Notes: generated by a model not told the origin, from the letters alone. A stretch of 64,000 bases of DNA from Bacteroidetes bacterium GWF2_41_31 (GCA_001769215.1 MEOL01000044.1:4219-68218); one strand, 5' to 3'; counted from the first letter of the stretch, positions 15,653 to 38,851 are shown. Numbers and translations are program-made.

Positions 15653-17656
15653 TTACCTGCCAATAAACACAACTCTTTTACCTATGGAACTTAATCCGGT
15701 CAACGCGTCTTCGGTAGCGAAGATCCTGGTCAGTTCTTTCAACTCCGATTCACAACCTGAGGCTTCGTTAATCAGCTTTTCAGCTGTTTGCAAGGCAAGA
15801 GGAGCTTTTTGACCTATCTTTTTTGAGAGTTGCTGAGCTTCCTCAACAGGTAAAAAATCATTTTCTGATATTCCTGAAAGTATTTCATTTACAGAATATT
15901 GATCAAAAAATGAACTCAATGCATTAAAATGACCGCTTAAATTGGATTTCCTTTTTTCGGGTATCGCTTTGTAGCCATGCAGAACATCAAACAGGTCGGC
16001 GGGGTCGATGATGGCATCGATCAGTCCCATTTCTAAAGCAATCGTGGAATTAATAAATTGCCCTGTATAGATTAAATATTTTGTTAAGCCTTTGCCAATT
16101 TTCTGCGCTGTTCGTTGTGTGCCGCCGAGTCCGGGATAGATGCCTATGCCCGTTTCAGGAAACGCCATAACAGCCTGTGGCAGGGCGAGGACCGTATCAG
16201 CGCAAAGGGCCAATTCGAGTCCGCCTCCCAGGGCAAGACCGTTAAGAACCGCGACTACATTTTTTGCCGAGTGATCAATTCTATCATACACCTGTTGACC
16301 GAATTTTGAAAACAATTCGATATCTTTAAGCTTTCCTGCTTTCATATTTTTAACGAAAAACCGGATGTCGGCACCCGCTACAAATGCTTTTCCGGTCCCG
16401 GTAATAAAAATGGTGCTGACCGCAGGGTCGGCCTCTGCATCGCTGAATTTTTGGTCCAACTGTGCCATCACCGTTTCGTTGAGTGCGTTCATATCCTCCG
16501 GCCTCGACATGGTGATGGTCGCTAGCGCGCCGTCTTTTTCAAGGCTCACATAATCCAGGTGCCATTTTTGCACTTGAATGCCGCGGGGTAGTTCCATTTT
16601 ATATAACCTGGCTATTTTTTTTACTAACCTGTTCACTTCTTCAACACCGAATTTCAGCATTAAATCAATGGGGCCCAATCGCCAACGCAAGCCTATCCGG
16701 GCACCTCTGTTCAAATCAGAAGCCGAACATACATTTTCGGCCAGTATCTGAGAACAAACGAAGAAAACAACTCCTGCCATTCGTTCGGTAATCAGTTTTT
16801 CAAGTTCGCTGCTGACGGCAGCATTTTCTATGTCTCCCAAATCCCATGGATTACCTGATTCAGCCTGTTTTTGTAATAATGGGCACGTATGGTATAAATT
16901 CCCAAACACTTCCAGGGTTTTTTGAGCGTGATAAGCAATGGGAACGCCTGTGGCATTCATCAATGCAAATGGCCCCATTCCAATTCCAAAGAGTTTCATG
17001 CAGACCTTTTCAACCTGAGGAATGGTAACTGTTTTTTCTTCGTATAACCTGACGGCCTCGTTTAACCAGGGTACAAAAAACCTGTTAACGGCAAAGCCGT
17101 ATGTGTCGGCAGTTGTGATGGCGTCTTTACCTGCCAGAACAGAAAATACCTGCATGGTTTTATATGTTTCAGCAGAAGTCTCTTTACCCGGGATGATCTC
17201 AACCAACCTGTTTTTGGCTGCATGGTAAAAATAGTGCAAACCTATAAAACGGGCAGGATTTGAAATGGATTTGGAGAGTTCTGTAACAGAGAACGATGAG
17301 GTATTGGTGGCGATGATGGTATCCTGACCGACGATCGAATCCAGTGTTTTAAAAAGTTCGCATTTAGCGTCAAAGTTTTCGAAAATAGCCTCCACGATCA
17401 AATCACAGGCTTTTAATCGTTCAAGCTGATGCGTTCCCGAGATGTTCGAAACAATCGATTCAACTTGTTTTGCTGAGAATAGTCCGCGCTCAACACCTTG
17501 ATTTAAAATGTCTTTTATTCCGTTGATTCCTTTATCAACATATTTCATTTCCCTGTCGGCAAGAATCACCTTAAAACCTTGTTGAGCAAATTTTTGTGCA
17601 ATTGCCGAGCCCATGGTTCCTGCGCCAACAACACCTACCGTGTTAATTTTTTTCAT
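15653..17656 (-). CDS. bifunctional 3-hydroxyacyl-CoA dehydrogenase / enoyl-CoA hydratase
   Basis: N-terminal NAD fold VGVVGAGTMGSAIAQ (3HCDH). The C-terminal crotonase domain shows ITGTGKAFVAGADI .. LALGGGLELAL. Confidence 0.85.
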   Translation of the reverse strand: MKKINTVGVVGAGTMGSAIAQKFAQQGFKVILADREMKYVDKGINGIKDILNQGVERGLFSAKQVESIVSNISGTHQLERLKACDLIVEAIFENFDAKCELFKTLDSIVGQDTIIATNTSSFSVTELSKSISNPARFIGLHYFYHAAKNRLVEIIPGKETSAETYKTMQVFSVLAGKDAITTADTYGFAVNRFFVPWLNEAVRLYEEKTVTIPQVEKVCMKLFGIGMGPFALMNATGVPIAYHAQKTLEVFGNLYHTCPLLQKQAESGNPWDLGDIENAAVSSELEKLITERMAGVVFFVCSQILAENVCSASDLNRGARIGLRWRLGPIDLMLKFGVEEVNRLVKKIARLYKMELPRGIQVQKWHLDYVSLEKDGALATITMSRPEDMNALNETVMAQLDQKFSDAEADPAVSTIFITGTGKAFVAGADIRFFVKNMKAGKLKDIELFSKFGQQVYDRIDHSAKNVVAVLNGLALGGGLELALCADTVLALPQAVMAFPETGIGIYPGLGGTQRTAQKIGKGLTKYLIYTGQFINSTIALEMGLIDAIIDPADLFDVLHGYKAIPEKRKSNLSGHFNALSSFFDQYSVNEILSGISENDFLPVEEAQQLSKKIGQKAPLALQTAEKLINEASGCESELKELTRIFATEDALTGLSSIGKRVVFIGR

Positions 17657-17712
17657 TTTATCGTGTGTATGAATAATTGAATTAATTCAAAGGGTTTCAT
17701 GCTTAAAAGTGG

Positions 17713-18486
17713 CTATGAATTTTTCCATTCGGGTTTTCTTTTTTCCATGAATGAAAGGATGCCTTCATTGGCATCATGCGTTTCCATCAGCTCTTTGATG
17801 AAAACCTTCTCCAGCTTCCTGAGGTTTTTTCTGAACAGTTTATTTAAAATAATCCGGCCCGAACGGACTGAATACCTCAAAGAACTGGCACTTTTGGGAA
17901 GTATGTGTTTTTGAATCCAACCATCAGTTTCCAGAATCAGGGTTTCCTTGTCCTCATAAACATGGTTTAGAAGCCCGATTTTTTCAGCCTCACCGGCATC
18001 AATTGTTTTTCCGGTAATTAACAATTCCTCGGCCCTGGCGCTACCAATTTTTAGTGGCAACAAAATGGAAGCAGGCGGCGGGAACACGCCCAGCATAATC
18101 TCAGGCTGACCGAGTTTTGCAGTGCTATCGGCAAACATGAAATTGCAGATTAAGGCAAGTTCGTGGCCACCACCAAGACATTGGCCCGAAATTTTTGCTA
18201 AAGTCGGAATCGACAAATTGACCAGATTGTAAAACATCCCGTGAAAGCTGTGAAGCATTTCCGCAACCTGGTCTTTGGTATGTTCTTCAACCGATGCCCC
18301 GAAGGAAAAGTGTTTTCCGGCACCTTCAAAAGTAATGATTTTAAGATCCGGCTTTTTCTTAAATTCTTTGAACAGTTGGTTTAATTCCCGCATCATGATG
18401 CTGTCCAAAACATTTCCTTTGCCATCGTTCAGGATGATTTCTGCCACCTGACCATCGTATTTATAATTGAGTTCTACCTTTTGCAT
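17713..18486 (-). CDS. dch: enoyl-CoA hydratase family; candidate cyclohexa-1,5-diene-1-carbonyl-CoA hydratase
   Basis: Crotonase fold of 257 aa with GAGKHFSFGASVEEH. It sits next to oah and had in a bcr cluster. The specific function is inferred from context. Confidence 0.55.
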   Translation of the reverse strand: MQKVELNYKYDGQVAEIILNDGKGNVLDSIMMRELNQLFKEFKKKPDLKIITFEGAGKHFSFGASVEEHTKDQVAEMLHSFHGMFYNLVNLSIPTLAKISGQCLGGGHELALICNFMFADSTAKLGQPEIMLGVFPPPASILLPLKIGSARAEELLITGKTIDAGEAEKIGLLNHVYEDKETLILETDGWIQKHILPKSASSLRYSVRSGRIILNKLFRKNLRKLEKVFIKELMETHDANEGILSFMEKRKPEWKNS

Positions 18487-18551
18487 TTATTTGATATTTA
18501 GTGTATTGAATTGACGGGTAACGAATATTCAATAGTTAATCATTAACTCAT

Positions 18552-19634
18552 TCACCCTTTTACGGGAGAAATTGCCTTTTGCATATCCTCGTCCCAGCCC
18601 ATACCTTTTGCAAGCATTTGCCTTAGTTTAATAAAGTCCACTTCCCGGTTTTCGCGCGGACCATCGTTAAAGGCTTTAAATCCGGCACGGCCTTCAGTCA
18701 TCATGTTTAAGGCCAGCCAATCCCTGTTCGATTCTTTGTTTTTGTCCCAATGTTCGAGTTTTTTCTTTCTGATGGAGTTGATGGTTTTACTCAGGCAATT
18801 GGGCATTAAATACAGGAGTTTTGTGCACATCCTTTCAACGGCAGCGTCCAACAATGATAAATCAATAACTCCTGCTTTAAGCAGTTCTTTTGCATTGGAC
18901 AGTTCTGCTCCTTGTTTTGGTGTTCCGTAAATAATTTCGCCCTGTTGATTAACCCATTGGGTAGTATAGACCATTGGGTTTTGAATAAATTCGCCGTTCA
19001 CCTTTAATGCAGGAACGATTTCCGATAACAGGCCGTATCTTTTTGCTTCATGCGCCGACCAGGGATCGCATACGGTGCAGGAATACATGGCCAACTCAAC
19101 ACCTACAAACAGGTTTAGGAAATCCGTTGAGCCACCATCCGGGGCACTTCCGTGTTTGGGGCCGGCCTGGCCAAAACGCGCTAAATCCTGTGCTATCGAA
19201 AAATCACAGGCCATGCCAATTTCCTGTCCGCCGCCTATCCTCATGCCATTCACCCGGTTTATAACGGGTTTGTCGCTCATTAATATGCCAGAAACCATGT
19301 CGTTAAACAACCTCATATACTGTTTGTACTCTTGTGGGTTTCCGGCGTAATATTCGGCATATTCCTTTGTGTTTCCACCCGTACAAAAGGCTTTGTCGCC
19401 CACGGCAGTAAATACAATGGCTACCACGCTCCGGTCGTTTGACGCTTCCCTGAAAGCAAGGATGACTTCTTTTACGGCCTGTGTAGTATACGAATTGAAT
19501 TGTGCAGGATTGTTTAAAATAATCCAGGCATTAAATAACCCCTCAACCGGCTTGCCTTCTTTATCAAGGCAGGCTCTTTTTTCGAATAGAATTTCCTTGT
19601 ATTCTACTTCAGTTAAATTGTGGTTTACAAGCAT
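18552..19634 (-). CDS. oah: 6-oxocyclohex-1-ene-1-carbonyl-CoA hydrolase (ring-cleaving, BamA/Oah)
   Basis: It contains QFNSYTT and GGGQEIGMACDF, the regions targeted by the widely used bamA marker primers, plus FCTGGNTKEYAEYYAGNPQEY. Confidence 0.85.
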   Translation of the reverse strand: MLVNHNLTEVEYKEILFEKRACLDKEGKPVEGLFNAWIILNNPAQFNSYTTQAVKEVILAFREASNDRSVVAIVFTAVGDKAFCTGGNTKEYAEYYAGNPQEYKQYMRLFNDMVSGILMSDKPVINRVNGMRIGGGQEIGMACDFSIAQDLARFGQAGPKHGSAPDGGSTDFLNLFVGVELAMYSCTVCDPWSAHEAKRYGLLSEIVPALKVNGEFIQNPMVYTTQWVNQQGEIIYGTPKQGAELSNAKELLKAGVIDLSLLDAAVERMCTKLLYLMPNCLSKTINSIRKKKLEHWDKNKESNRDWLALNMMTEGRAGFKAFNDGPRENREVDFIKLRQMLAKGMGWDEDMQKAISPVKG

Positions 19635-19667: not shown

Positions 19668-20729
19668 TTAAAAATCAGGAAATAACACTGACCTGCGGGT
19701 GTATTTATGATCCAACGTATTCATGAAAACCTCGTTTATTTTCGACATGGGGAAAGTCTCGATAAAGGGCCCGATCTTTAGTTTCCCCTGATCGATGAAC
19801 TCCAGCACATCTCCATAGAGTTCAGGTTTGCAGCCCCATGTTCCAATCAATTTAGCGTCAAAAGCCATCAGGTTGCTTAACCTCACCTGTGTTTTGTCCA
19901 TTGTAAAACCAACAATCGACATGGTTGAGGCATAGGTAATTAAGTTAAAACCAAGTTCCTGGCCTTGCGGGGTTCCTGACATTTCAAATATCTTCCACCC
20001 ATATTTTGAAGCACCCAGTTCTTTCGCGATCTCCCTTACTTTTTGTTTTACCTCTCTAACATCCAATCCTTTAACGTTTAATATGGCATCAACACCATGT
20101 TTTTTTGCTAAATCGAGTTTTTCATCGCTGATATCCAACGCGAGTACCCTGGCACCAAGAATTTTAGCTAACAACGATCCATAAATACCAACCCCGCCAA
20201 CGCCTATAACAATCGCGAAGTCACCTATTTGTAATTCCGATTTTTTTAACACCTGATACGGCGTCGTAATGGCATCGGCAACCACAGCCAGTTCAGCGAG
20301 TTTGTATTTGTCGAGGACACTCTCAGGCACATGACATAAGCTCCTGTGGGGCACTTTGATATGTGAAGCAAAGCCTCCATCAAAGTCATTGCCGGGCATC
20401 AGCTGATTTTGACAAATATTTCCCCTGTCGTTTTTGCATAATTCACATTTGCCGCATGGCAGCACGGCTGGGATAATCACTTTTTTATTTATCAGGTGCC
20501 CGGGGCCTGAAAAGATCGTGCCACTAATTTCATGTCCGAGTGTAAGTGGAAGTGAATGTTTTGTTTGAACTCCATAATGCCAAAAACTCAGGTCGGTATG
20601 ACATACCCCGCAGCCAGCGATTTTTACAATTACTTCGTCCTCATTTATCTCAGGAAAATCACTTTCTGTGAGTATAAAATCAGATTTTAACTCTGTCATT
20701 TTCCATGACTTAATCTTATTAGGTTCCAT
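19668..20729 (-). CDS. had: Zn-dependent alcohol dehydrogenase family; candidate 6-hydroxycyclohex-1-ene-1-carbonyl-CoA dehydrogenase
   Basis: GCGVCHTDLSFWHYG zinc-ADH signature and GVGGVG NAD fold. It is adjacent to oah. Confidence 0.7.
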   Translation of the reverse strand: MEPNKIKSWKMTELKSDFILTESDFPEINEDEVIVKIAGCGVCHTDLSFWHYGVQTKHSLPLTLGHEISGTIFSGPGHLINKKVIIPAVLPCGKCELCKNDRGNICQNQLMPGNDFDGGFASHIKVPHRSLCHVPESVLDKYKLAELAVVADAITTPYQVLKKSELQIGDFAIVIGVGGVGIYGSLLAKILGARVLALDISDEKLDLAKKHGVDAILNVKGLDVREVKQKVREIAKELGASKYGWKIFEMSGTPQGQELGFNLITYASTMSIVGFTMDKTQVRLSNLMAFDAKLIGTWGCKPELYGDVLEFIDQGKLKIGPFIETFPMSKINEVFMNTLDHKYTRRSVLFPDF

Positions 20730-20757: not shown

Positions 20758-22020
20758 TTAAATATTTACATTTTCAAACAATACAGCAGTACCTTGTCCG
20801 CCGCCAATACATGCAGAAGCAATTCCATATTTTACTTTGCGGATGTTCATCTCACGCGAAATAGTGAGTGAAAGCCTAAGTCCGGTGGCTCCCAAAGGAT
20901 GGCCCAGGGCGATGGCACCACCATTTACGTTGGCAATGGCCCTGTCGAATCCCAGTTCTTTTTCACAGCCAATAAATTGAGCCGCAAACGCCTCATTGAT
21001 TTCAATAAGGCCGATTTCATCCATCGATAAACCTGTTATTTCGAGCAATAACCTGATAGCGGGAACCGGTCCCAATCCCATTAATTTCGGATCGATGGCG
21101 CTGGTGGCCGAAGCAACTACTTTGGTCAGTACTTTCCTGTTGAGGGAGTTGGCTACCTCTTTGTTCCCAATAACCACCGAGGCAGCGCCATCGACAATGC
21201 CACTGGAATTTCCGGCGGTTTGAACTCCATCTTTGCCAAATACCGGTGGTAATTTGGCGAGTTTTTCCAAATCTGTAGGGCGTATGTTTTCGTCCGTAAT
21301 AAAATGTTCTACTCCCCGGGGTAATCTCACTTTTCGGGGAACCAAACCTTCTGCTTCAAATACCGTTGAGTTGACGGCCATTATTTCATCATCGAAAAAT
21401 CCATTTTCCCTGGCGGCGATAGCGGTATCGAAAGATCTCTTTGCGAAGACATCTACTTCTTCGCGGGTTATATTGTATTTTTTCGCTACATTTTCAGCCG
21501 TAACCCCCATGGGATAACCGGCTGCCGTGTCGTTTAACGATTCCCATAGCATATCTTTAAAGTTCGGTTGCCCAAAGGCATATCCCATCCTGTTTCCAAA
21601 ACTTACCGTAGGGGATTGGCTCATGCTTTCGGTACCTGCGCACAGCACGGTAGCTGCTTTTCCTAAAATAATTTGTTCAGCGCCCGTGACGATGGTTTCA
21701 AAGCCGGAACCACAAATCCTTTGCACCATGAGTGAAGGAATGGTTTGTGGAATGCCCGAGAACAACGAAATATGGCGGGGTAAAAAGTAAGTGTCAGCCG
21801 AACTTTGTCCAATGTTGGCGATGATGACCTGATCGATATTTTGCGGGTTTACAGATGATTTTTCAAGAGCCGATTTCGCGGCAAATATCCCTAAGTCGGT
21901 GGGAGATACAGAACCCAACGTTCCACTAAGTTTGCCAAAGGGAGTCCTGGCTCCGCCGATTAAAAAAATATCATCATAGATGATAGCTATTCCTTTTACT
22001 TTGTCATGGATTGATTTCAT
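20758..22020 (-). CDS. acetyl-CoA C-acyltransferase (thiolase)
   Basis: Thiolase active-site contexts QRICGSGFE and GIASACIGGGQG. The ATG at 22020 overlaps the upstream stop (ATGA). Confidence 0.85.
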   Translation of the reverse strand: MKSIHDKVKGIAIIYDDIFLIGGARTPFGKLSGTLGSVSPTDLGIFAAKSALEKSSVNPQNIDQVIIANIGQSSADTYFLPRHISLFSGIPQTIPSLMVQRICGSGFETIVTGAEQIILGKAATVLCAGTESMSQSPTVSFGNRMGYAFGQPNFKDMLWESLNDTAAGYPMGVTAENVAKKYNITREEVDVFAKRSFDTAIAARENGFFDDEIMAVNSTVFEAEGLVPRKVRLPRGVEHFITDENIRPTDLEKLAKLPPVFGKDGVQTAGNSSGIVDGAASVVIGNKEVANSLNRKVLTKVVASATSAIDPKLMGLGPVPAIRLLLEITGLSMDEIGLIEINEAFAAQFIGCEKELGFDRAIANVNGGAIALGHPLGATGLRLSLTISREMNIRKVKYGIASACIGGGQGTAVLFENVNI

Positions 22021-22799
22021 GGTTCTGGATTTAAATGATTGACAAATGACTTTTGGGCTATACATGCTGCACCAAAAGCGTTGATTAATTGCGGGTTTTC
22101 AGGAATGGTTACCCGAACATTGAATTTCTCCCCGATGATGTTTTGTAGGTAAGGGTGATATTGAGCAACTCCCCCGATCAGATAAACAGGTAGTGAATTG
22201 TCTGTCGGGATTTTTTGTATTCTGTTGGCAATTGAAATATAGATTCCCTTGGCCAGGTCTTCATCTGATGTATCGTCGAAAATCCATTTCATGATTTCGG
22301 TTTTTGCAAACACCGTACAAAAACTGTTTAACTCTTTGTCGGAAGTTGATTTGGCAGCAAGCCGGCTCATATCAAGAACATCCAATTCGGCCCTTTCGGC
22401 CACTTCGGTTATAAACGCTCCCGTGCCCGCGGCACATTTGCTGTTCATGTAAAAGTCAATGACTTTACCGTTTTTATCGCTTTTTAAAAGTTTAATATCC
22501 TCTCCACCAATATCAATAATGGTTTTATCAATTGGATTGAGTTGTGTGACCCCGGCAGAAGCGCAGTACAGTTCAGTTTTAATTAAATCAGCAGATTTCA
22601 GTAGTTTTCTCCCATAACCGGTTGAACAAGTGTATTCAACTTTAAATTGATTTATCACCTGGTCGATCACATCATCCCTTTTGTTGTTTCGGGCCATGGT
22701 TTTGAAAATATCGCTGTGTACAATACCACAATTGGAATTGATCACAACCAATTTTGTGTAAAGTGACCCGATATCAACACCTAAGAAAAACTTCTGCAT
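22017..22799 (-). CDS. BcrA/BcrD/HgdC-type ATPase (acyl-CoA dehydratase/reductase activase)
   Basis: GVDIGSLYTKLVVI and CAAGTGAFI (ASKHA fold with a cluster-bridging Cys). 260 aa. Confidence 0.8.
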   Translation of the reverse strand: MQKFFLGVDIGSLYTKLVVINSNCGIVHSDIFKTMARNNKRDDVIDQVINQFKVEYTCSTGYGRKLLKSADLIKTELYCASAGVTQLNPIDKTIIDIGGEDIKLLKSDKNGKVIDFYMNSKCAAGTGAFITEVAERAELDVLDMSRLAAKSTSDKELNSFCTVFAKTEIMKWIFDDTSDEDLAKGIYISIANRIQKIPTDNSLPVYLIGGVAQYHPYLQNIIGEKFNVRVTIPENPQLINAFGAACIAQKSFVNHLNPEP

Positions 22800-22807: not shown

Positions 22808-23791
22808 TTAATCTAAAAAAGCATCTTTTGCATGGCTTTCAATATAATTCTTCTGAGTAATGGCCTTTACCAAGTTAGTGAAAACTAAGTTTATAGGAGT
22901 TTTAATGTAGTGTTTCCTACCATAATCAACAAATTTTCCGTTCATGTAATCTATTTCTGTTTCTCTTTTGTTGATGAGGTCGACGGCCAGTGAAGGGAAG
23001 TGGTTTCCGGCTTTTTTCAGGTAACGAATACAGAGTTTAATAAAATTTTGTTCGAATACAATATCCTCTGCTTTAGCCACCTCCATAGCCTCGGCTATTA
23101 TTTGTTCAACTATTTCAAGAGTATCCGGATTCGCCATGGCTTCCTTCATCGTATGAGCCGAAATGGCACACAAAGGGCTTAGGGCCGCGTTTAAAATAGT
23201 TTTAATCCACGCTTGTTCTACCACTTTGAATGAGTTGACACTGGTGGTTTGCAAATCCTGCGAAGTCAGGATATCGGCTATTAAATTCGCGAGTTCACTC
23301 TGACTGTCGTCGATGGAGCCCACATAGTTTGGCGGATTAAAAAATGTTACATTAACCACATTTGGGGCATTCAGGTTTCCGGCAAAATTTACGATCATTC
23401 TAAAAATCCGGGAATCGTCAAAATGACTTTGATATTTTATTCTGATGTCAATCCCGTTTTGTGCAATCAATAATTTAAGTCCGTTGTGATTTGATGCATC
23501 AATTTGATTTAAAACGGAATCTACATGATATGCTTTTACCGAACTAATCAACAGGTCAAATTTGTGCTCCATCAGTTCGGGAATTGATGAATAGATGTGT
23601 TTTAAGTAGGCAGTCTTGGTGATGGCCCCGACCAGTTCTATCCCTTCTTCTTTAATTAAATTGAGTTTTCTTTTGTCGACATCGCAAACGGCCACTTCAC
23701 AGCCTGCCTGTTTAAAGTGAACGGCCAAAATCAAGCCTACAGGTCCCAGGCCAATAATTCCTACTTTAAAGTCTTCTGGTTTCATATTCAA
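22808..23791 (-). CDS. ketopantoate reductase (ApbA/PanE) family NAD(P)-dependent oxidoreductase
   Basis: GIIGLGPVGL Rossmann start. C-terminal PSLAVDLINKRETEIDYMNG is typical of the KPR family. Confidence 0.75.
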   Translation of the reverse strand: MNMKPEDFKVGIIGLGPVGLILAVHFKQAGCEVAVCDVDKRKLNLIKEEGIELVGAITKTAYLKHIYSSIPELMEHKFDLLISSVKAYHVDSVLNQIDASNHNGLKLLIAQNGIDIRIKYQSHFDDSRIFRMIVNFAGNLNAPNVVNVTFFNPPNYVGSIDDSQSELANLIADILTSQDLQTTSVNSFKVVEQAWIKTILNAALSPLCAISAHTMKEAMANPDTLEIVEQIIAEAMEVAKAEDIVFEQNFIKLCIRYLKKAGNHFPSLAVDLINKRETEIDYMNGKFVDYGRKHYIKTPINLVFTNLVKAITQKNYIESHAKDAFLD

Positions 23792-31753: not shown

Positions 31754-32503
31754 ATGATGATAGGTAAAAAAATTTCAATTGTTACCGGTGCCGCCAATGG
31801 GATCGGGAAAAGTATTGCAAAAAAACTGATTGAAGACCATTTTTTTGTCGTGGTTGTTGATTTGGATCATACCAATCCGGATTCGATGACGGATTATTTT
31901 GGAAAAGAAAATTTTGAATTTGTGAAATGCGATATTAAAAATCAGAAGGACATCCAATCAATGTTTAAGGAATTAATGAATAAGTACGGACAAGTTGATG
32001 TGCTGGTCAATAATGCCGGAGTTATCAGGGACAATATGATTTGGAAAATGCCAAAGGAAGATTTTGATTTTGTGATCGATGTAAATTTAAAAGGAACCTG
32101 GATGATGTGCCGGGAAGCGGCCATCATCATGAAAGAGCAAAAATCGGGCAAAATAGTCAACATTTCGTCGCGTGCCTGGTTAGGTAACAACATGGGGCAG
32201 TCGAACTATACGGCATCAAAAGCCGGGATAGTTGGACTTACCAGGGTACTGGCACTTGAACTGGGTTATTACAACGTAAATGTAAATGCGGTAGCTCCCG
32301 GACTTATTGACACACCTTTAACGCAGGCCCTTTCGGAAGAAGTCATGCAAAAACTCATCAGTGCCCAACCCACGAAAAAAATGGGCAAACCAGATGACAT
32401 CGCCAACGCGGTTTCATTCTTAGTATCTGAGAAAAGTAATTTTATAACCGGACAAATCATTCATGTGGATGGGGGCAGGAGTATAGGGAGTACTATATTT
32501 TAG
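31754..32503 (+). CDS. SDR-family oxidoreductase (FabG-like 3-oxoacyl/3-hydroxyacyl reductase)
   Basis: TGAANGIGKS cofactor motif, NNAG, and catalytic YTASKAG. Confidence 0.85.
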   Translation: MMIGKKISIVTGAANGIGKSIAKKLIEDHFFVVVVDLDHTNPDSMTDYFGKENFEFVKCDIKNQKDIQSMFKELMNKYGQVDVLVNNAGVIRDNMIWKMPKEDFDFVIDVNLKGTWMMCREAAIIMKEQKSGKIVNISSRAWLGNNMGQSNYTASKAGIVGLTRVLALELGYYNVNVNAVAPGLIDTPLTQALSEEVMQKLISAQPTKKMGKPDDIANAVSFLVSEKSNFITGQIIHVDGGRSIGSTIF

Positions 32504-32592: not shown

Positions 32593-33795
32593 TTATACTT
32601 TTTCAAAAATCACAGCAGCACCCTGACCTACACCGATGCAAAGTGTGGCCAGGCCATAGCGAACGTCATCACGGCGGCACATTTCATGAACCAGGGTAGT
32701 AATTATCCTGGCGCCTGAGCAACCCAATGGATGTCCCAGGGCTATGGCTCCACCGTTTACGTTGATGAGTCTCTCGTCCAGGCCCAATTCCCTGATGCAC
32801 GCTATGGATTGCGCCGAAAAAGCCTCGTTAAGTTCTGTTAAATCTATTTGGCTTATGTCAAGCCCTGCTCTTTTCAACGCTTTGCGAGTTGCCGGAACAG
32901 GACCAATTCCCATATAAGCAGGATCAACACCTGCCACGGCAGAAGATAAAATTTTAACTTTTGGTTTTAGGCCGTATTGCTTTACAATATCTTCGGATAC
33001 GATGATTAAGGCGGCGGCGCCGTCATTAATGCCGGATGAGTTGCCAGCGGTAACCGTTCCATCAGCAGAAAAAGCGGGTTTAAGTTTTGAAAGTTGTTCC
33101 GGCGTTACGTCCGGCCTGGGATGTTCATCAAGTGTAACAATCAATGGATCTTTTTTACCTTGTGGAATTGAAACCGGAATAATTTCGTCATTAAATTTAC
33201 CCTGGTCAATCGCATTTTTATACTTTAATTGTGATGAGTAAGCAAACTCATCCTGTTCTTGCCGGCTAATTCCATATTTTTGGGCCACATTTTCTGCCGT
33301 CTCACCCATTGAATAGGGGAAGTACATTTCTGTCAGTTTTTTATTGGGGAACCGCCAACCTATGGTCGAATCAGCTATTTGTGGTTCACGACCAAAAGGA
33401 GTTTCACTTTTGGCGACAATCCATGGTGCCCTCGACATGCTTTCGGTACCTCCTGCGATAAAGATATCCCCTTCATCCAGTTTTATAGCCCTGGAGGCAT
33501 CTATCACGGCCTGCATTCCGGAAGCACATAGTCTGTTGATGGTAACTCCCGCAGTTTCTACAGGAAGTCCCGCCAGCAAAGCCGCCATTCGGGCAACATT
33601 TCGGTTGTCTTCACCAGCTTGGTTGGTACAACCCAGGATCACATCTTCGATTTCGTTTTTTGGAATTCTGGGATTTCTTGCCAACAATGATTTTATCACC
33701 AGAGCAGCCAGGTCGTCGGGCCGGATTTTGCTTAACACTCCTCCGTATTTCCCAATGGGTGTTCTAACGGCATCAATTATATAGGCAGTTTTCAT
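32593..33795 (-). CDS. acetyl-CoA C-acyltransferase (thiolase II-like)
   Basis: NRLCASGMQA, NVNGGAIALGHPLG and CIGVGQG thiolase signatures. Confidence 0.9.
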   Translation of the reverse strand: MKTAYIIDAVRTPIGKYGGVLSKIRPDDLAALVIKSLLARNPRIPKNEIEDVILGCTNQAGEDNRNVARMAALLAGLPVETAGVTINRLCASGMQAVIDASRAIKLDEGDIFIAGGTESMSRAPWIVAKSETPFGREPQIADSTIGWRFPNKKLTEMYFPYSMGETAENVAQKYGISRQEQDEFAYSSQLKYKNAIDQGKFNDEIIPVSIPQGKKDPLIVTLDEHPRPDVTPEQLSKLKPAFSADGTVTAGNSSGINDGAAALIIVSEDIVKQYGLKPKVKILSSAVAGVDPAYMGIGPVPATRKALKRAGLDISQIDLTELNEAFSAQSIACIRELGLDERLINVNGGAIALGHPLGCSGARIITTLVHEMCRRDDVRYGLATLCIGVGQGAAVIFEKV

Positions 33796-33925: not shown

Positions 33926-35104
33926 CTACAAAAAGGCATTAATTCCGGTAATATCCATTCCGGTGATCAACAAATGAATATCATGTGTTCCTTCGTACGT
34001 AATTACAGATTCCAGGTTCATCATGTGACGCATCATGGGGAAATCACCTGTAATTCCCATCGCACCCAGAATTTGTCTGGAATCCCTGGCAATCTTCAGG
34101 GCAATCTCCACATTGTTTCTTTTGGTCATCGATATTTGGCCGGGTGTGGCCCTGTCCTCATTTCTCAACGTGCCCAAACGCCATGCAAGAAGCTGGGCCT
34201 TGGTAATTTCGGTAATCATCTCGGCTAATTTTTTCTGGGTAAGTTGAAAGCCGGCGATTGGTTTGTCGAATTGTTTTCTTTCGAGGGCATAACGCAATGC
34301 TGTATCGTAGCAATCGCAAGCCGCACCAATAACTCCCCAGGCAATGCCATACCTGGCTGAATTAAGGCACATTAACGGCCCTTTCAATCCATGTACATTC
34401 GGCAATATATTTTCTTTTGGAACCTTGACATTGTCAAAAACCAGTTCGCCGGTAATGGATGCCCTCAACGACCATTTGTTTAAAGTCTCAGGAGCTGAAA
34501 AGCCCGGCATCCCTTTTTCGACAATCAGACCCCGCACGACTTTGTGCTCATCTTTTGCCCAAACAACACAAACGTCTGCAATCGCGGCATTTGTAATCCA
34601 CATTTTAGCTCCGTTTAGCAGAAAATGATCTCCTTTATCTTCGAACCTGGTTTTCATGCTTCCAGGATCGGAGCCATGATCGGGTTCGGTTAAACCAAAG
34701 GCTCCGACCAATTCCCCTTTTGCCAGGGCAGGTAAGTACTTTACCCTTTGTTCCTCCGTTCCGAATTGATAAATCGGGTACATGACCAGCGACGATTGAA
34801 CCGATGCTGCCGAACGCAAGGCCGAATCACCTCTTTCGAGTTCCTGCATGATCAGACCATAAGAAATCTGGTCCAAACCTGCACCACCATATTTTTCTGG
34901 AATATAGGAGCCAAACGCGCCAATTTCGCCCAGTTCTTTCATCAGATGTCCCGGGAATTCATGCTTTTGACAAGCCTCGTCGATGATTGGTTTTACACGC
35001 CTGTTTACCCACTCTCTTACGGAGTTTCTAATCAGTTTATGTTCTTCGGTAAGGAGTTCATCCACACAAAAGTAGTCGGGATGGTGATATTGAGCAGTTG
35101 CCAT
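33926..35104 (-). CDS. gcdH: glutaryl-CoA dehydrogenase (acyl-CoA dehydrogenase family)
   Basis: N-terminal and middle regions (AFGLTEPDHGSDPGSMKT, YGIAWG) look like glutaryl-CoA dehydrogenases, and the context fits the benzoyl-CoA lower pathway. Confidence 0.8.
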   Translation of the reverse strand: MATAQYHHPDYFCVDELLTEEHKLIRNSVREWVNRRVKPIIDEACQKHEFPGHLMKELGEIGAFGSYIPEKYGGAGLDQISYGLIMQELERGDSALRSAASVQSSLVMYPIYQFGTEEQRVKYLPALAKGELVGAFGLTEPDHGSDPGSMKTRFEDKGDHFLLNGAKMWITNAAIADVCVVWAKDEHKVVRGLIVEKGMPGFSAPETLNKWSLRASITGELVFDNVKVPKENILPNVHGLKGPLMCLNSARYGIAWGVIGAACDCYDTALRYALERKQFDKPIAGFQLTQKKLAEMITEITKAQLLAWRLGTLRNEDRATPGQISMTKRNNVEIALKIARDSRQILGAMGITGDFPMMRHMMNLESVITYEGTHDIHLLITGMDITGINAFL

Positions 35105-35121: not shown

Positions 35122-36069
35122 TTAAAGAGAATTTAGTTCGGTTAAGGATTCAACTAAGTATGTTGTTAGCATTGTTTTTCTGTATTGGCGATCAAAAAAA
35201 TCGTTGTTAATAATTTTTGCTTTTCTATTAATTTCTTCATAAATGGCGTCGAAAGGGACCCCTTTTTTTGTGTTGACAACAACTGGATTTGGTGCAATCC
35301 CGGAAATGGCCATCTTAATGCGATGGTTAATATGAAGAGTTGAGGCTATCGTGAGCGAAGTAAATTCCAGGGTTTTTCTTTGTCTAAGCTTCTTGAAAGT
35401 GGATTTGATATGCTGGTTTAGAGGTAAAAGTATGAATTTTAAGATACTTTTCCTGTCAATCATTTTTGATTTTATTCCGTCCCCCGAATACAGGTCCTCC
35501 AAAGGAATTACGCTTTCAGAATCCTTATCCACCATCACCACTTTGGCATTTAAACTAATTAACGCGGGTGCCATATCTGACACAAATTTTGATAAACATG
35601 ATTTTTTTCCTCCGGTGGCAATACAAATGTCGCCTCCGCATTTCAGGCAATAACCGGCGGCTTCTCTCCATAGTGCGCTCTGGTTGTAGAAAATGCACCT
35701 GTTTTCACATAAGAGATTTCCTCCAATGGTTGCCTGATTTCTTATTAAAGGTGTGGCTACTGATTTTGCCGCCTCTATGATCACCTGAAAATATTCGTTG
35801 ATATATGGATTGGCGATTATTTCAGACAATTTTACTGCGGCACCTATTTTATACTCATCGCCATCCGGACTTGAAGTTGTTAGTTCAATTATATTGGTCA
35901 AATCGACCAGCCCATCAGATTCAAAGTTGCCCTGTTGCCGATTAACCATTATATCAGTGGCGCCTGAGATAAACGATAGGTTGCTTTTATTATTTATTAA
36001 TTCCAGCGCTTCCGAAATGGTTTCGGGGGTAAAATATGGTACTGAATCCGGTGGAGTTGTCATCTTCAT
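35122..36069 (-). CDS. hcrB: FAD-binding subunit of a xanthine-oxidase-family enzyme with a Cys-rich insertion; 4-hydroxybenzoyl-CoA reductase beta-like
   Basis: CoxM-type FAD domain (ISGATDIMV, ATIGGNL). A 35-40-aa insert follows with Cys at residues 121, 125, 141, 144, 149 and 158. Confidence 0.65.
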   Translation of the reverse strand: MKMTTPPDSVPYFTPETISEALELINNKSNLSFISGATDIMVNRQQGNFESDGLVDLTNIIELTTSSPDGDEYKIGAAVKLSEIIANPYINEYFQVIIEAAKSVATPLIRNQATIGGNLLCENRCIFYNQSALWREAAGYCLKCGGDICIATGGKKSCLSKFVSDMAPALISLNAKVVMVDKDSESVIPLEDLYSGDGIKSKMIDRKSILKFILLPLNQHIKSTFKKLRQRKTLEFTSLTIASTLHINHRIKMAISGIAPNPVVVNTKKGVPFDAIYEEINRKAKIINNDFFDRQYRKTMLTTYLVESLTELNSL

Positions 36070-36082
36070 GTTGTATAAAAAA

Positions 36083-38851
36083 TTAGGTTTCCAACAAGGC
36101 TTTCAGCACTTTGTCTGGTGTAATGGGCAACGACATCATTCTTTTTCCGATGGCATCGAAAATGGCATTTCCTATGGCAGGTATTACAGGATGAAGAGCG
36201 CCTTCGCCACATTCTTTTGCACCAAAGGGGCCTTCAGGGTCACCGCTTTCGACGATCGAGGCATGAATATTCGGGGTATCCAGGCTGGTAGGGATTTTAT
36301 AGTCAAGAAAATTACTGTTCAACAGCAACCCTTTGTGGTATTTCATTTCTTCACTAATGGCCTGTCCCAAACCCATGTGCCATGAACCTTCCAGTTGCCC
36401 TTCCACTGCCAAAGGATTGATGGCCAATCCGCAATCGTGCGAACCCCAGATATCCAGGATTTCGACCTCGCCTGTTTGCAGGTTCACCTTTACTTCTGCA
36501 ATTACACTTCCGAAAGAATAGGAAGGACTCAGACCTGCTCCCGCACCTTTAAAGGTGCCTCCCAGTTTTGGGGAATTGTAATAACCACTAACGGTTAAGG
36601 CACCAATATTCCGGGTGGCCATATCAATGGCTTCAACCCAGGATAAATCTACTTTCCTGTCGTTGGAGAAAACCCGGCTATTTTCAAAATTCAATTCATC
36701 GGCTGAGATGTCAAATTTTTTGGTGACAGAATCAACAATGAGATTTTTAAGATTCTCCGCGGCATGTTTGGCAGCATTGCCGGCCATAAAAGTTACCCTG
36801 CTCGAATAGCTGCCCAAATCTACCGGGGTAAGCACGGTGTCGGCGGCAAGAACAAAAATGTTTTCAAAACCCAGGCCCAATACCTCGGCCACAACAATGG
36901 CCAACATGGTATCGCTGCCTTGTCCCATATCGCTTGCCCCCGAAGAAATGACAACCCTTCCATCGAAATCCACTTTTAAATGAACAACCGACTGGGGATA
37001 CTCATTCCAATGAATGGGTAAAGCACTTCCGCTAATGAAAAATCCTGAGGCCACTCCAATACCATGGCCATAGGGGAGTTTTCCGTATTTGCTTTTCCAT
37101 CCCGATTGCTCCATCACAACTTTCAATGCGTCGATGCTCCCATTTGAGGTAATCCGGTATTCACCCACTGTTAAAGTATTTGACTCCAAAAAATTTGTAA
37201 GTCGGATTTCACATGGATCCTGACCGGCTTTTCGTGCGAGTATATCGATCGATGTTTCCATGGCATATCGCGGATTAACGGCTCCATGACCTCTCATGGC
37301 ACCGCATTGTGGTTTGTTGGTGTACACCCTTCTGGTCCTAAACCCAAAATTATTCACTTTGTAAGGGCCTTGTAAGAGTACCCCGTTATAATAACTTGTT
37401 ACCACACCAAAACTGCCATAAGCACCGCCATCAATCACGATATCGGTATCGATCACTTCCAGTTTTAAATCCCGGTTCATCCCTAGTTTGAAATTCATTT
37501 TTGTTGGATGTCGTCCGTGATTGGTCAGAAACACTTCCTCTCTTGAAAGAACAGTTCTTACAGGAATACCAAGTTGTTTGGCCATAAAGGCAATAATGAT
37601 TTCATGAGGAAAGGGATCGCTTTTTCCGCCGAACCCACTGCCTAAAGTTGGTTTAATGACCCTGACTTTATTGAGTGGAAGTTCCAACACTTTTGCCAGT
37701 GTTTTGTGTAAATAGTGAGGAACCTGCGTGGCGGTAATAATAGTTAATCCGTTTTCGTCCCAGAAAGCAGTGGCCGCATGTGGTTCAATAAAACCATGGT
37801 TGATGCCTTGAAAAGTAAAATCGTTGTCGGTTTTGTAATATGAATCCTCAAACCCTTGTTTTTGGTCGCCAAAGCGCAACTCGGACTTTTTATGTATGTT
37901 GTTATTGAATTTGCCATCGCGATGGCTATCGGGATGAATCTTTTCATTCTCACCTAAGTCCGCCAGGGATTCATCAGGATCGAAATATTCTTTTAACGGT
38001 TGATAGTGAACTTTTATTTTTTCAACCGCTTGTCGGGCTATCTCAGCAGTATCGGCAGCCACGGCAGCAACAATCTCACCAATGTACCTTGTTTTTTCAA
38101 CCGCCAGGGCTGTTTCATCTTCTGAGATAGGAAGTACACCGAATTTATTTTCTAACTGCTTACCTGTGACGATGAGGCGAACCCCTTCCATTTTTTCTGC
38201 TTCACTTATGTCGATGGATATGATGTTTGCATGAGCAAAAGTGCTTCGGAGGAACCGGCAATGTAGAGCGTTCTTCGTGTAAATATCATCGGCATAATCA
38301 GCGGTGCCTTTTGCCTTTTTTACAGCATCCAGATAGGGTTTTGGCTTGCCGACCACCTGATATTTTCCATGATGATTTTCCGGTTGGTCCTCTTTTTCCT
38401 TTGAACATGCTGAAACGGCTTCGATGATTTTTTTGTAACCGGTACATCTGCATAAATTACCTGAGAGCGCTTCTTTTATTTCTTCTTTGGCAGGATCAGG
38501 ATTTGCTTTTAAAAGCGCGTACGAAGTAAGGATCATTCCTGGTGTACAGAACCCGCATTGTATGGCACCTTTCTCTATGAATTTTTTTTGAATTTGATCT
38601 AATTCGTTTTTGTCGGAAAGACCTTCGATTGTGATAATGCTTTTGTTGTGGCATTTTACAACGGGTAATATACAACTCAAAACAGGTTTATCGTCTAATA
38701 ATACGGTACATGCTCCACAGGTTCCTTGTTCGCAACCAATTTTTGTACCTGTTAAATCAAGTTGCTCCCTCAGTACTTTTGCAAGTGTAATATCTTCCTT
38801 TACCAGTATCCTGTATAGCCGACCATTGACGGTTAAATTGATTTCCCTCAT
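36083..38851 (-). CDS. fused [2Fe-2S] small subunit plus molybdopterin large subunit of a xanthine-oxidase-family enzyme; 4-hydroxybenzoyl-CoA reductase gamma-alpha-like
   Basis: The N-terminal ~160 aa carry CEQGTCGACTV, QCGFCTPGM and CRCTGY. They continue without a stop into a ~760-aa Mo-binding aldehyde oxidase/xanthine dehydrogenase domain. Confidence 0.7.
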   Translation of the reverse strand: MREINLTVNGRLYRILVKEDITLAKVLREQLDLTGTKIGCEQGTCGACTVLLDDKPVLSCILPVVKCHNKSIITIEGLSDKNELDQIQKKFIEKGAIQCGFCTPGMILTSYALLKANPDPAKEEIKEALSGNLCRCTGYKKIIEAVSACSKEKEDQPENHHGKYQVVGKPKPYLDAVKKAKGTADYADDIYTKNALHCRFLRSTFAHANIISIDISEAEKMEGVRLIVTGKQLENKFGVLPISEDETALAVEKTRYIGEIVAAVAADTAEIARQAVEKIKVHYQPLKEYFDPDESLADLGENEKIHPDSHRDGKFNNNIHKKSELRFGDQKQGFEDSYYKTDNDFTFQGINHGFIEPHAATAFWDENGLTIITATQVPHYLHKTLAKVLELPLNKVRVIKPTLGSGFGGKSDPFPHEIIIAFMAKQLGIPVRTVLSREEVFLTNHGRHPTKMNFKLGMNRDLKLEVIDTDIVIDGGAYGSFGVVTSYYNGVLLQGPYKVNNFGFRTRRVYTNKPQCGAMRGHGAVNPRYAMETSIDILARKAGQDPCEIRLTNFLESNTLTVGEYRITSNGSIDALKVVMEQSGWKSKYGKLPYGHGIGVASGFFISGSALPIHWNEYPQSVVHLKVDFDGRVVISSGASDMGQGSDTMLAIVVAEVLGLGFENIFVLAADTVLTPVDLGSYSSRVTFMAGNAAKHAAENLKNLIVDSVTKKFDISADELNFENSRVFSNDRKVDLSWVEAIDMATRNIGALTVSGYYNSPKLGGTFKGAGAGLSPSYSFGSVIAEVKVNLQTGEVEILDIWGSHDCGLAINPLAVEGQLEGSWHMGLGQAISEEMKYHKGLLLNSNFLDYKIPTSLDTPNIHASIVESGDPEGPFGAKECGEGALHPVIPAIGNAIFDAIGKRMMSLPITPDKVLKALLET

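Follow-up and report, generated by a model that had tools for sequence, protein, structure and literature searches.

A Conserved Dehydratase-like Module in a Predicted Benzoyl-CoA Degradation Cluster from an Uncultured Member of the Bacteroidota

Results

Gene Content and Layout of the Cluster

We analyzed a 64-kb stretch of contig MEOL01000044.1 of Bacteroidetes bacterium GWF2_41_31 (the whole stretch is referred to below as the window, and positions are counted from its first nucleotide). The region between positions 15653 and 38851 (the cluster) carries genes for a predicted class I, ATP-dependent benzoyl-coenzyme A (CoA) reductase (BCR) together with genes for further steps of benzoyl-CoA degradation and, embedded among them, a dehydratase-like module that is conserved in related genomes. 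The cluster is filled by 18 open reading frames (ORFs) with intergenic gaps of at most 131 nt. Seventeen ORFs lie on the minus strand, to which all coordinates of cluster genes given below refer unless stated otherwise, and one, coding for a short-chain dehydrogenase/reductase (SDR), lies on the plus strand. The mostly co-directional arrangement described in the original prediction, which had been made from the sequence alone, is thus confirmed; the 19 genes counted there are obtained only if an ORF in which HcrC and HcrA are fused is counted twice. Thirteen consecutive genes, from bcrC to a gene coding for a fusion of 3-hydroxyacyl-CoA dehydrogenase and crotonase, are separated by no more than 70 nt, which suggests that they form a single operon. 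The acyl-CoA ligase, two thiolases, the dehydrogenase/crotonase fusion, the SDR, glutaryl-CoA dehydrogenase and the 4-hydroxybenzoyl-CoA-reductase-like (Hcr-like) genes named earlier were all located in the cluster, while three genes inside the presumed operon, coding for a HadB-like protein, a PanE/ApbA-like reductase and an activase, had been overlooked.

Gene families were assigned by NCBIfam profile scans, in which the score was compared with the curated equivalog cut-off of each model (all values in bits), and the type of reductase was judged by equivalog scores of hidden Markov models (HMMs) combined with patterns of cofactor ligands. Relatives were collected by a BcrB search of one genome per GTDB species. 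The search retrieved 418 loci with a BcrB relative, and the best 80 of them were compared, with synteny among the 80 assessed by tblastn with window proteins.

Synteny of the gene set extends to approximately 55 of the 80 genomes, where the ORFs are intact and identities range from 59% to 99%, and two forms of the cluster can be distinguished. Type 1, to which the window belongs (30 loci), consists of bcrCBAD, the AMP-forming ligase, the hadB-like and panE-like genes, the activase gene, a thiolase gene, had, oah and dch; a divergent SDR gene is often present upstream, and a fused hcr gene was found in 11 of the 21 loci with enough upstream sequence. In type 2 (25 loci), bcrCBAD is followed by a gene for an ADP-forming acyl-CoA synthetase, the panE-like gene, had, oah, dch and the hadB-like gene, and none of 17 type-2 loci contains hcr. 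Most of the other 25 loci were too short for assignment to a type.

BcrCBAD as a Predicted Class I Benzoyl-CoA Reductase of the BCR Type

The reductase genes follow each other in the order bcrC-bcrB-bcrA-bcrD from position 31624 down to position 26773. They code for the γ subunit BcrC (30416–31624), the catalytic β subunit BcrB (29069–30346), the enlarged ATPase α subunit BcrA (27634–29022, 462 aa) and the ATPase δ subunit BcrD (26773–27618). Three of the proteins exceed the cut-offs of BCR-type equivalog models: BcrC scores 444 with TIGR02263 (cut-off 421), BcrB 648 with TIGR02260 (cut-off 487) and BcrD 317.5 with TIGR02261 (cut-off 312.9). BcrA reaches 409 with TIGR02259, its best and own model, against a cut-off of 578, the match covering positions 2–432 of the 432-position profile, including an insertion of approximately 195 residues. 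The bzd-type equivalogs fall short, with scores of 95 for BzdN with BcrC (cut-off 454), 84 for BzdO with BcrB (cut-off 449) and 141 for BzdQ (cut-off 380).

Benzoyl-CoA reductases and 2-hydroxyacyl-CoA dehydratases belong to one superfamily, and BcrB and BcrC do match the dehydratase models HadB (177) and HadC (178), so that one could regard the bcr-like genes as coding for a dehydratase and its activator and for no ring reductase at all. We consider this highly improbable. The scores with the BCR-type models, which pass their cut-offs, are 2.5–3.7 times higher than those with the dehydratase models; BCR typically has two distinct ATPase subunits, of which one is enlarged; the presumed operon already contains another, dehydratase-like gene that is accompanied by an activase gene of its own; and dch, had and oah are adjacent.

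The cofactor ligands provide a sign that is independent of the scores. BcrB residues C88, C123 and C366 align with C95, C128 and C380 of BzdO, the ligands of the catalytic [4Fe-4S] cluster in the reported BzdNO structure, in which BzdN binds a double-cubane cluster through six Cys residues (PMC11971306). BcrC has only three Cys residues in common with BzdN (C94, C121 and C351), and the same is true of MbdN and HadC. The BcrB triad together with the three-Cys BcrC therefore points to an enzyme of the BCR/MBR kind and not of the BZD kind.

In the ATPase subunits, the core of BcrA aligns with MbdQ and HgdC, with the insertion located at approximately residues 55–250, and each of the two motifs that align with those of MbdQ and HgdC contains a Cys residue (C320 or C324 and C356 or C359). 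The Cys residues of the BcrA sequences NDRCAAG and STCTVFA do not vary among 71 relatives. The only two Cys residues of BcrD, C133 and C172, lie one in each HgdC/MbdQ-type motif, and both are invariant in 69 relatives. BcrB has six Cys residues that are invariant across the 80 loci (C88, C93, C123, C330, C333 and C366), three more than the catalytic triad. We also observed that, in alignments, the CxC/ACP region of the double-cubane cluster protein (DCCP) and BzdN coincides with C330 and C333, and the cofactor content of BCR-type BcrB may merit a look, given these six residues. His131 of BzdO was considered as a marker separating reductases from dehydratases and was dropped: this position is Phe in BcrB (Phe126) and MbdO and Val in HadB and the HadB-like protein.

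The data support the assignment of BcrCBAD as a class I benzoyl-CoA reductase of the BCR (Thauera) type, as originally predicted on the grounds of the bcrCBAD order, the enlarged α subunit and the adjoining dch, had, oah and lower-pathway genes, all of which are indeed present. With BcrCBAD and Dch-Had-Oah of Thauera aromatica, the cluster shares the gene order, the enlarged α ATPase, the Cys ligands of the bridging and catalytic clusters, BcrB, BcrC and BcrD scores above the equivalog cut-offs and the linkage of dch, had and oah to bcr. It differs from the Thauera system in its host phylum, in the absence of a ferredoxin gene after bcrD and of korAB nearby, in the divergence of BcrA (409 versus the cut-off of 578) and in the CoA ligase gene and HadB-like/PanE-like/activase module inserted between bcrD and had; in addition, a hemerythrin gene is often found upstream of bcrC in relatives of the window cluster. 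The Aromatoleum enzyme BzdNOPQ (PDB 8s02; PMC11971306) belongs to the same superfamily and has the same catalytic [4Fe-4S] triad in its O/B subunit, but the window proteins score low with bzd models (84–141), BcrC has three Cys residues in common with BzdN, and Phe126 replaces His131 of BzdO.

The best solved structures for BcrB, BcrC and BcrA (approximately 200 bits each) are those of MbdONQP from Thauera chlorobenzoica (PDB 9g87, 9gai), and MbdN has the same three-Cys pattern as BcrC. This similarity is, however, far below that to the BCR-type HMMs, and MbdQ lacks the α insertion (269 aa versus 462 aa). Since MBR-type enzymes are known within class I, since MbdO is the best solved match of BcrB (200 bits) and since BcrA is under its equivalog cut-off, one has to ask whether BcrCBAD acts on a substituted or other aryl-CoA (methyl-, hydroxy- or halo-benzoyl-CoA, in an MBR-like manner) instead of benzoyl-CoA. 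This appears unlikely to us: BcrB and BcrC score 648 and 444, above the cut-offs, with BCR-type models, compared with approximately 200 with MbdO and MbdN, and the genes counted as co-transcribed with bcr include those for Dch, Had and Oah, the enzymes of the unsubstituted dienoyl-CoA route.

Ring Opening, Lower Pathway and CoA Ligase

Two of the three enzymes predicted to act directly after the reductase exceed their cut-offs: Had (19668–20729) scores 436 with TIGR03201 (cut-off 339), and Oah/BamA, the ring-opening 6-oxocyclohex-1-ene-1-carbonyl-CoA hydrolase (18552–19634), scores 578 with TIGR03200 (cut-off 464). The marker peptides of Oah/BamA reported earlier were found at residues 45 (QFNSYTT) and 136 (GQEIGM). 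The Dch-like cyclohexa-1,5-diene-1-carbonyl-CoA hydratase (17713–18486) scores 231 with TIGR03189, below the cut-off of 292.5; TIGR03189 is still its best model, the next being a generic enoyl-CoA hydratase with 151.

The product of the gene at 33926–35104 (392 aa) is, as judged by comparison with PDB entries, a canonical decarboxylating-type glutaryl-CoA dehydrogenase. It matches ten structures of such enzymes, 3d6b and 1siq among them, with approximately 420 bits, as compared to 257 bits for the non-decarboxylating Desulfococcus enzyme (3mpi) and at most 257 bits for other acyl-CoA dehydrogenases; the non-decarboxylating type, which was the best NCBIfam match, was rejected on the basis of this comparison. 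Decarboxylating glutaryl-CoA dehydrogenases hand their electrons to electron-transferring flavoprotein (ETF) and the respiratory chain, and the gene therefore hints at a respiring host.

The PcaF-like thiolase (32593–33795), of the 3-oxoadipyl-CoA type and a candidate 3-oxopimelyl-CoA thiolase, scores 587 with NF006551 (cut-off 605) and 583 with TIGR02430. The second thiolase (20758–22065) scores 393 with TIGR01930, the match beginning at approximately residues 30–36; since 49 nt of the ORF are shared with the activase gene, its true start is probably located further downstream. The last gene of the presumed operon (15653–17656, 667 aa) codes for the fusion protein, with residues 2–250 matching the dehydrogenase part of FadB and residues 367–557 matching enoyl-CoA hydratases, that is, a 3-hydroxyacyl-CoA dehydrogenase at the N-terminus and a crotonase at the C-terminus. 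The FabG-like SDR, encoded divergently from bcrC on the plus strand (31754–32503), is a candidate 3-hydroxyacyl-CoA dehydrogenase, and its gene is found upstream of bcrC in 15 of 21 type-1 relatives.

The AMP-forming acyl-CoA ligase (25010–26740, 576 aa; Pfam AMP-binding and AMP-binding_C_3) is unlike known benzoate-CoA ligases. Its best NCBIfam matches are long-chain and FadD11 types, its best PDB match is a feruloyl-CoA synthetase with only 98 bits, and the 60 PDB matches listed for it contain no benzoate-CoA ligase save two malonyl-CoA synthetase/benzoate-CoA ligase chimeras. In 25 relatives, its position is taken by the ADP-forming acyl-CoA synthetase.

An Enzyme Resembling 4-Hydroxybenzoyl-CoA Reductase

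Two genes at the upstream end of the cluster code for an Hcr-like enzyme: a fusion of the γ and α subunits (36083–38851, 922 aa) and a β-like subunit with a flavin adenine dinucleotide (FAD) domain and an extra [4Fe-4S] loop (35122–36069, 315 aa). The α part (residues 172–919) scores 806 with TIGR03194 (cut-off 995), the γ part, with its two [2Fe-2S] clusters (residues 5–149), scores 179 with TIGR03193 (cut-off 258), and the β subunit scores 190 with TIGR03195 (cut-off 405). These are the highest-scoring models in each case, but because all three parts miss the equivalog cut-offs, we refer to the enzyme as Hcr-like only.

In the PDB, by far the best match of the α part is HcrA of T. aromatica (1rm6_A, 579 bits; the next match has 337 bits). 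The β subunit is less similar to its Thauera counterpart (118 bits with 1rm6_B), yet its residues C125, C141, C149 and C158 align with C122, C138, C146 and C155 of 1rm6_B and are kept in six of six close relatives. We take these four residues to be the ligands of the extra [4Fe-4S] cluster of 4-hydroxybenzoyl-CoA reductase, whose loop distinguishes this enzyme from other members of the xanthine oxidase family. A further difference from Thauera HcrCAB (PDB 1rm6) is the fusion of γ and α, which was found in all 16 related loci that bear this hcr gene. The GenBank entry for the α subunit, OFY48407.1, is a 757-aa "hypothetical protein" that lacks the N-terminal domain with two [2Fe-2S] clusters present in the 922-aa ORF. 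Genes for a MobA/MocA-like transferase (16 related loci), XdhC (12 loci) and MoeA recur in the neighborhoods, which fits maturation of an Hcr-like molybdenum enzyme.

A Dehydratase-like Module Embedded in the Cluster

Between the ligase gene and the second thiolase gene lie three genes that code for a lone HadB-like subunit of the 2-hydroxyacyl-CoA dehydratase α type (23803–25005, 400 aa), an NAD(P)H-dependent 2-oxoacid/ketone reductase of the PanE/ApbA family (22808–23791, 327 aa) and an acyl-CoA dehydratase activase of the HgdC/HadI type (22017–22799, 260 aa), the last two separated by 8 nt in the window. We counted these genes in 52 related loci that have at least 7 kb of sequence downstream of bcrD. 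The PanE-like protein is encoded in 48 of them and the HadB-like protein in 44, while CoA activation is represented downstream of bcrD by the ADP-forming synthetase in 25 and by the AMP-forming ligase in 23.

The HadB-like protein scores 200 with the HadB model NF052455 (cut-off 750) and 146 with the BcrB model. Its predicted structure (mean predicted local distance difference test value 85.6) is closest to the HadB α subunit (3o3m_A), with a template-modeling (TM) score of 0.90, followed by BzdO (0.87), MbdO (0.85), DCCP (6eno, 0.77) and β-type subunits (0.72). It has six invariant Cys residues, the canonical three plus C31, C290 and C377. Assignment as a DCCP was set aside as the principal interpretation, the score with NF040772 being 49 (cut-off 350) and the TM score of 0.77 with 6eno lying below those of HadB, MbdO and BzdO; C290 does align with a Cys residue of DCCP and BzdN. 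Because the same number of invariant Cys residues is found in BcrB of this clade, the Cys count does not decide the cluster type. No gene for a β-type partner, which all characterized 2-hydroxyacyl-CoA dehydratases have, was found adjoining the HadB-like gene in the window or in 44 relatives by tblastn with BcrC as the β-type query.

The PanE-like protein scores 152 with TIGR00745 (cut-off 141) and contains GxGxxG, WIKxxxN and TEIDYMNG motifs; it retains the Lys and Glu motifs of ketopantoate reductases. The PDB entries 2ew2 (69 bits) and 3wfi (59 bits) match it better than E. coli PanE (1ks9, 29 bits). The activase scores 172 with TIGR00241 (cut-off 125) and has C122 and C161 in the two cluster motifs, both invariant in 24 relatives. 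A single ORF encodes the PanE-like protein and the activase in 17 of the 22 loci where both are present (loci L013, L037, L043, L047, L048, L049, L054, L061–L065, L069, L072, L074, L077 and L080). The fused protein is 615–651 aa long in 16 of these loci, and a longer open frame in L062 gives 956 aa; both domains of the fusion were confirmed in L047 (16584–18419), a closed chromosome of a metagenome-assembled genome (MAG). The possibility that BcrAD serves the HadB-like protein in type-2 clusters with no apparent activase gene was considered and dropped: L038 has an adjacent activase gene, and the other type-2 loci end just after the hadB-like gene.

The trio was also found, at 73% identity, downstream of a gene for an ADP-forming acyl-CoA synthetase in locus L081, with no bcrCBAD within 10 kb. 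In this locus (1–21203; ENA ERZ27058295, contig k141_541154), it lies downstream of HdrA/FlpD (MvhD)/NuoE/NuoF/Fer2-like genes that resemble BamE-I, and it is followed by genes for hydantoinase A/B, a PALP enzyme, RidA, an acyl-CoA dehydrogenase and a B12 mutase.

The closest characterized counterpart of the module is the HadBC/HadI system of Clostridioides difficile (PDB 3o3m, 4eht), which it resembles in the fold of the α subunit (TM score 0.90), the three cluster Cys residues, the HgdC/HadI-type activase and the presence of an enzyme of a 2-oxoacid reductase family. Unlike the clostridial system, it has no HadC-type β subunit, a CoA ligase or synthetase stands in place of a CoA transferase, the dehydrogenase is of the PanE family instead of the LdhA type and is frequently joined to the activase in one protein, and C31, C290 and C377 are additional invariant residues. 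The ligase and the trio together parallel a clostridial operon for 2-hydroxyacids, which likewise provides dehydrogenase, CoA-activating, activator and dehydratase functions. The view we favor is that they would act as a feeder route in which a 2-oxo or 2-hydroxy acid is converted to an enoyl-CoA. Aryl-lactates are attractive candidate substrates, as their products could be carried on to benzoyl-CoA by the fusion protein, the second thiolase and the Hcr-like enzyme.

It is conceivable, if rather doubtful, that the cluster mainly serves such aromatic acids (phenylpyruvate and phenyllactate from phenylalanine, and the 4-hydroxy forms from tyrosine) and not free benzoate. The PanE-like enzyme would then form the aryllactate, the ligase its CoA ester, and the HadB-like protein with the activase cinnamoyl-CoA or 4-coumaroyl-CoA, which the fusion protein and second thiolase would convert to benzoyl-CoA or 4-hydroxybenzoyl-CoA for the Hcr-like enzyme and the BCR. 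Consistent with this, all four functions of the clostridial operon are found inside the bcr operon, the modeled HadB-like fold is closest to HadB α, the PanE-like scores favor 2ew2 and 3wfi over E. coli PanE, the ligase is not of the benzoate-CoA ligase type and has feruloyl-CoA synthetase as its best PDB match, and β-oxidation genes and hcr occur in the same type-1 clusters. On the other hand, the choice of substrate is purely inferential, the dehydratase lacks a β subunit, and the feruloyl-CoA synthetase match is weak (98 bits). Type-2 relatives keep the module, but none of 17 shows hcr; genes for the second thiolase and the fusion protein were likewise not seen in the type-2 loci, which end approximately 10 kb downstream of bcrB. 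Furthermore, no aminotransferase gene recurs in the neighborhoods. Use of aromatic 2-oxo and 2-hydroxy acids is compatible with a benzoyl-CoA degradation locus and would refine what enters the pathway.

A role of the module in the lower pathway or in glutamate metabolism has also to be considered. Here, 2-oxoglutarate would be converted via 2-hydroxyglutaryl-CoA to glutaconyl-CoA, or the reverse, and the linkage to bcr would reflect common glutaryl-CoA and crotonyl-CoA steps. GenBank names the HadB-like protein "2-hydroxyglutaryl-CoA dehydratase", and the panE-like gene adjoins gcdH in three loci (L029, L033 and L060). However, the GenBank name is an automatic family name, and no glutaconyl-CoA decarboxylase genes are present. 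The glutaryl-CoA dehydrogenase is of the decarboxylating type, which does not release glutaconyl-CoA, and an AMP-forming ligase sets the direction from acid to CoA ester; because of these two enzymes, we consider a 2-hydroxyglutarate role improbable, and less likely than the feeder route for 2-oxo or 2-hydroxy acids.

Search for an Electron Donor

According to the original prediction, the cluster lacks genes for ferredoxin and 2-oxoglutarate:ferredoxin oxidoreductase, and this holds for the entire 64 kb. No CxxCxxCxxxC(P) ferredoxin motif was found in any frame of the window, and Pfam scans of the flanks revealed no 2-oxoacid:ferredoxin oxidoreductase, flavodoxin or ETF. Small ORFs with a ferredoxin motif occur near bcr in only three of the 80 loci (L010, L014 and L057), and unbiased clustering of the other neighboring ORFs of the 80 loci yielded no recurrent ferredoxin, ETF or oxidoreductase; the lack of a linked donor gene noted for the window therefore extends to the clade as a whole. 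The same clustering revealed a hemerythrin gene directly upstream of bcrC in 14 loci (for example, L047, 8271–8810, and L069, 8273–8818); a hemerythrin-domain gene is not present in the window.

The three ORFs with a ferredoxin motif belong to Ignavibacteria and are 118–127 aa long (L010, ~5500–9000; L014, 231–3172; L057, ~12600). L010 and L014 also contain a large ORF of 836–856 aa, which in L014 codes for a Fer2/Fer4/pyridine-nucleotide-oxidoreductase protein similar to NfnB/GltD. The ferredoxin-type ORFs of these three loci may belong to a dedicated donor system that is not present in the window. L010 and L057 carry further, distant Bcr-like genes (23–32% identity), with a full four-gene set in L057. 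In L015, a Bacteroidales MAG, the region directly upstream of bcrCBAD (724–8512, minus strand) codes for a 687-aa protein of the aldehyde:ferredoxin oxidoreductase family, a Fer4 protein, an HdrD-like CCG protein, a 1040-aa HdrA-like protein and an MvhD/FlpD-like protein, a layout resembling class II BamBCDEF beside a class I cluster.

Origin and Distribution of the Cluster

BcrB shows 100% sequence identity with OFY48380.1, a protein from Bacteroidetes bacterium GWF2_41_31 (taxid 1797348). The contig also carries a SusC/SusD pair (52555–57560) and a gene for a protein with the Por_Secre_tail domain, a type IX secretion system (T9SS) sorting signal (49945–52467), 11–19 kb from the cluster; these genes, together with the GenBank source record, identify the contig as one of Bacteroidota, as had been assumed. 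The cluster has the same GC content (0.419) as its flanks (0.408 and 0.417), and we see no compositional sign of recent transfer.

The best 80 BcrB loci have 75–99% BcrB identity, and all come from MAGs. Their labels are mostly Bacteroidales, Lentimicrobiaceae, Ignavibacteria/"Chlorobiota", Saprospiraceae, Chitinophagales, Flavobacteriales, Sphingobacteriaceae and similar, with a handful of others. The genome studied is itself a MAG, and some close matches are labeled Gammaproteobacteria (L031), KSB1, Armatimonadetes and Calditrichaceae, as one might expect if the Bacteroidota label were an artifact of binning or chimeric assembly, or if the cluster had been transferred recently from Proteobacteria. 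There is very little chance of this: the SusC/SusD and T9SS genes are on the same contig, the GC content does not change across the cluster, the 80 closest relatives are overwhelmingly labeled Bacteroidota, and the same cluster, at 97–99% protein identity, is present on a 155-kb contig of HGW-Bacteroidetes-16. The latter (PHDN01000007.1, locus L001) has the same gene order and represents a very close relative in a second data set.

The best 80 of the 418 loci contain no isolate, in line with the original statement that no characterized example from Bacteroidota is known. The rarity implied by that statement was not borne out, since 418 species-level genomes have a relative, the best 80 are almost all labeled Bacteroidota and have the cluster in common, and BcrB is already named as such in GenBank. 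Both NCBI and JGI name BcrB, while BcrA (OFY48379.1) is entered as a "hypothetical protein".

Flanking Genes in the Window

Upstream of the hcr genes lie an Ogt methyltransferase gene (38910–39443), immediately adjacent, and then genes of the oxidative pentose-phosphate pathway, pgi, pgl, zwf and gnd-like (39487–44279, minus strand). A gene for a small membrane protein (15160–15540, minus strand), with a sub-threshold match to HsmA (43.5, cut-off 78), is located just downstream of the last gene of the presumed operon. The 3′ end of the latter is abutted by a low-GC island (8526–14793; 0.32 versus 0.41–0.42 in the cluster and flanks) that codes for a PDC-S05-like helix-turn-helix protein, two ORFs of unknown function (486 aa and 347 aa, the second with a weak match to the CAP12/Pycsar TIR family), an EcoO109I-type restriction endonuclease and a C5 cytosine methyltransferase. 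A DUF805 RNA motif (6902–6970, plus strand; Rfam RF03081, 58.4 bits, gathering threshold 51.1) lies just upstream of a metallophosphoesterase gene (6988–8310).

At the other end of the window, a gene for a class A FAD-dependent monooxygenase (62125–63282, plus strand; 320 bits with NF005243), related to urate, 3-hydroxybenzoate and salicylate hydroxylases, is preceded by a gene for a Crp-like regulator (61469–62077). The monooxygenase hints weakly at a host that encounters oxygen as well. A search of the window for tRNA genes detected none. A scan for σ70 promoters and terminators was uninformative: it returned 56 promoter-like sites, with 46 expected, and the tool does not cover promoters of Bacteroidota.

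Discussion

Gene identities and order, conserved cofactor ligands and clade-wide synteny lead us to conclude, with a probability of roughly 85%, that this region of an uncultured Bacteroidota genome is a locus for benzoyl-CoA degradation. All enzymatic activities, the assignment of the lower-pathway steps and the nature of the electron donor are inferred. BcrA and BcrD would form an ATP-hydrolyzing, electron-activating dimer with a bridging [4Fe-4S] cluster that delivers low-potential electrons to the BcrB/BcrC catalytic dimer, which would reduce benzoyl-CoA to cyclohexa-1,5-diene-1-carbonyl-CoA. Dch would hydrate the dienoyl-CoA, Had would oxidize the product and Oah would open the ring to yield 3-hydroxypimelyl-CoA. 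The SDR or the dehydrogenase domain of the fusion protein, together with the PcaF-like thiolase, could then produce glutaryl-CoA, to be converted to crotonyl-CoA by the decarboxylating glutaryl-CoA dehydrogenase and on to acetyl-CoA by the fusion protein and a thiolase. As a peripheral reaction, the Hcr-like molybdenum enzyme may dehydroxylate 4-hydroxybenzoyl-CoA to benzoyl-CoA. We presume that the electrons come from a ferredoxin or a flavodoxin whose gene lies in another part of the genome.

Several observations weigh against this conclusion. BcrA, Dch and all three parts of the Hcr-like enzyme score below their equivalog cut-offs, and the ligase differs from known benzoate-CoA ligases. The HadB-like protein has three extra Cys residues and no β partner, ferredoxin, 2-oxoglutarate:ferredoxin oxidoreductase and ETF genes are absent from the 64 kb, and the host is uncultured and known as a MAG. 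The description of the pathway as complete, given in the original prediction, was too strong: the window has no electron donor, no ETF and no recognizable benzoate-CoA ligase, for which a FadD11/long-chain-type enzyme stands instead.

At the level of genes, the finding is real, but it is already public and not rare. MAGs of Krumholzibacteriota with bcrABCD have been reported (PMC10936416), and a survey of mangrove sediment includes one Bacteroidota MAG among those with aromatic-mineralizing potential, a phylum "rarely reported on this function" (PMC11704145). Like the cluster described here, these FCB-group MAGs with bcrABCD represent genome-inferred class I pathways of uncultured organisms outside Proteobacteria; the architecture of the Bacteroidota cluster and the embedded module are not mentioned in the parts of the two surveys consulted here. 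Our literature search on class I BCR in Bacteroidota, Ignavibacteria and Bacteroidales retrieved survey-level mentions only.

To our knowledge, class I benzoyl-CoA reductases have been studied almost exclusively in denitrifying or phototrophic Proteobacteria. The main new point of the present analysis is the conserved dehydratase-like module. As a tentative proposal, which we hold to be possible but well short of probable, the bcr clusters of Bacteroidota may hold a second, previously undescribed member of the radical-enzyme family of BCR and 2-hydroxyacyl-CoA dehydratases: a lone α-type protein with six invariant Cys residues that would be accompanied by its own ATPase, fused in most relatives to a PanE-type NAD(H) reductase, and by a CoA ligase or synthetase. 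Together, these would constitute a new peripheral route from aromatic 2-oxo or 2-hydroxy acids (or another 2-hydroxy acid) to an enoyl-CoA that feeds into benzoyl-CoA, and the clade, parts of which are likely to be strict anaerobes, would use a class I reductase, with its high cost in ATP, in the absence of a ferredoxin dedicated to it. If this is true, two ATP-driven low-potential iron-sulfur enzymes of one superfamily are encoded in one operon. The accessory module and the supply of low-potential electrons without a bcr-linked ferredoxin are the parts worth experimental follow-up.

If the clade does possess the full set of dearomatization enzymes, abundant Bacteroidota of groundwater, lakes and sediments may degrade aromatic rings without oxygen, which would change who counts as an aromatic degrader in surveys of the carbon cycle and of bioremediation.

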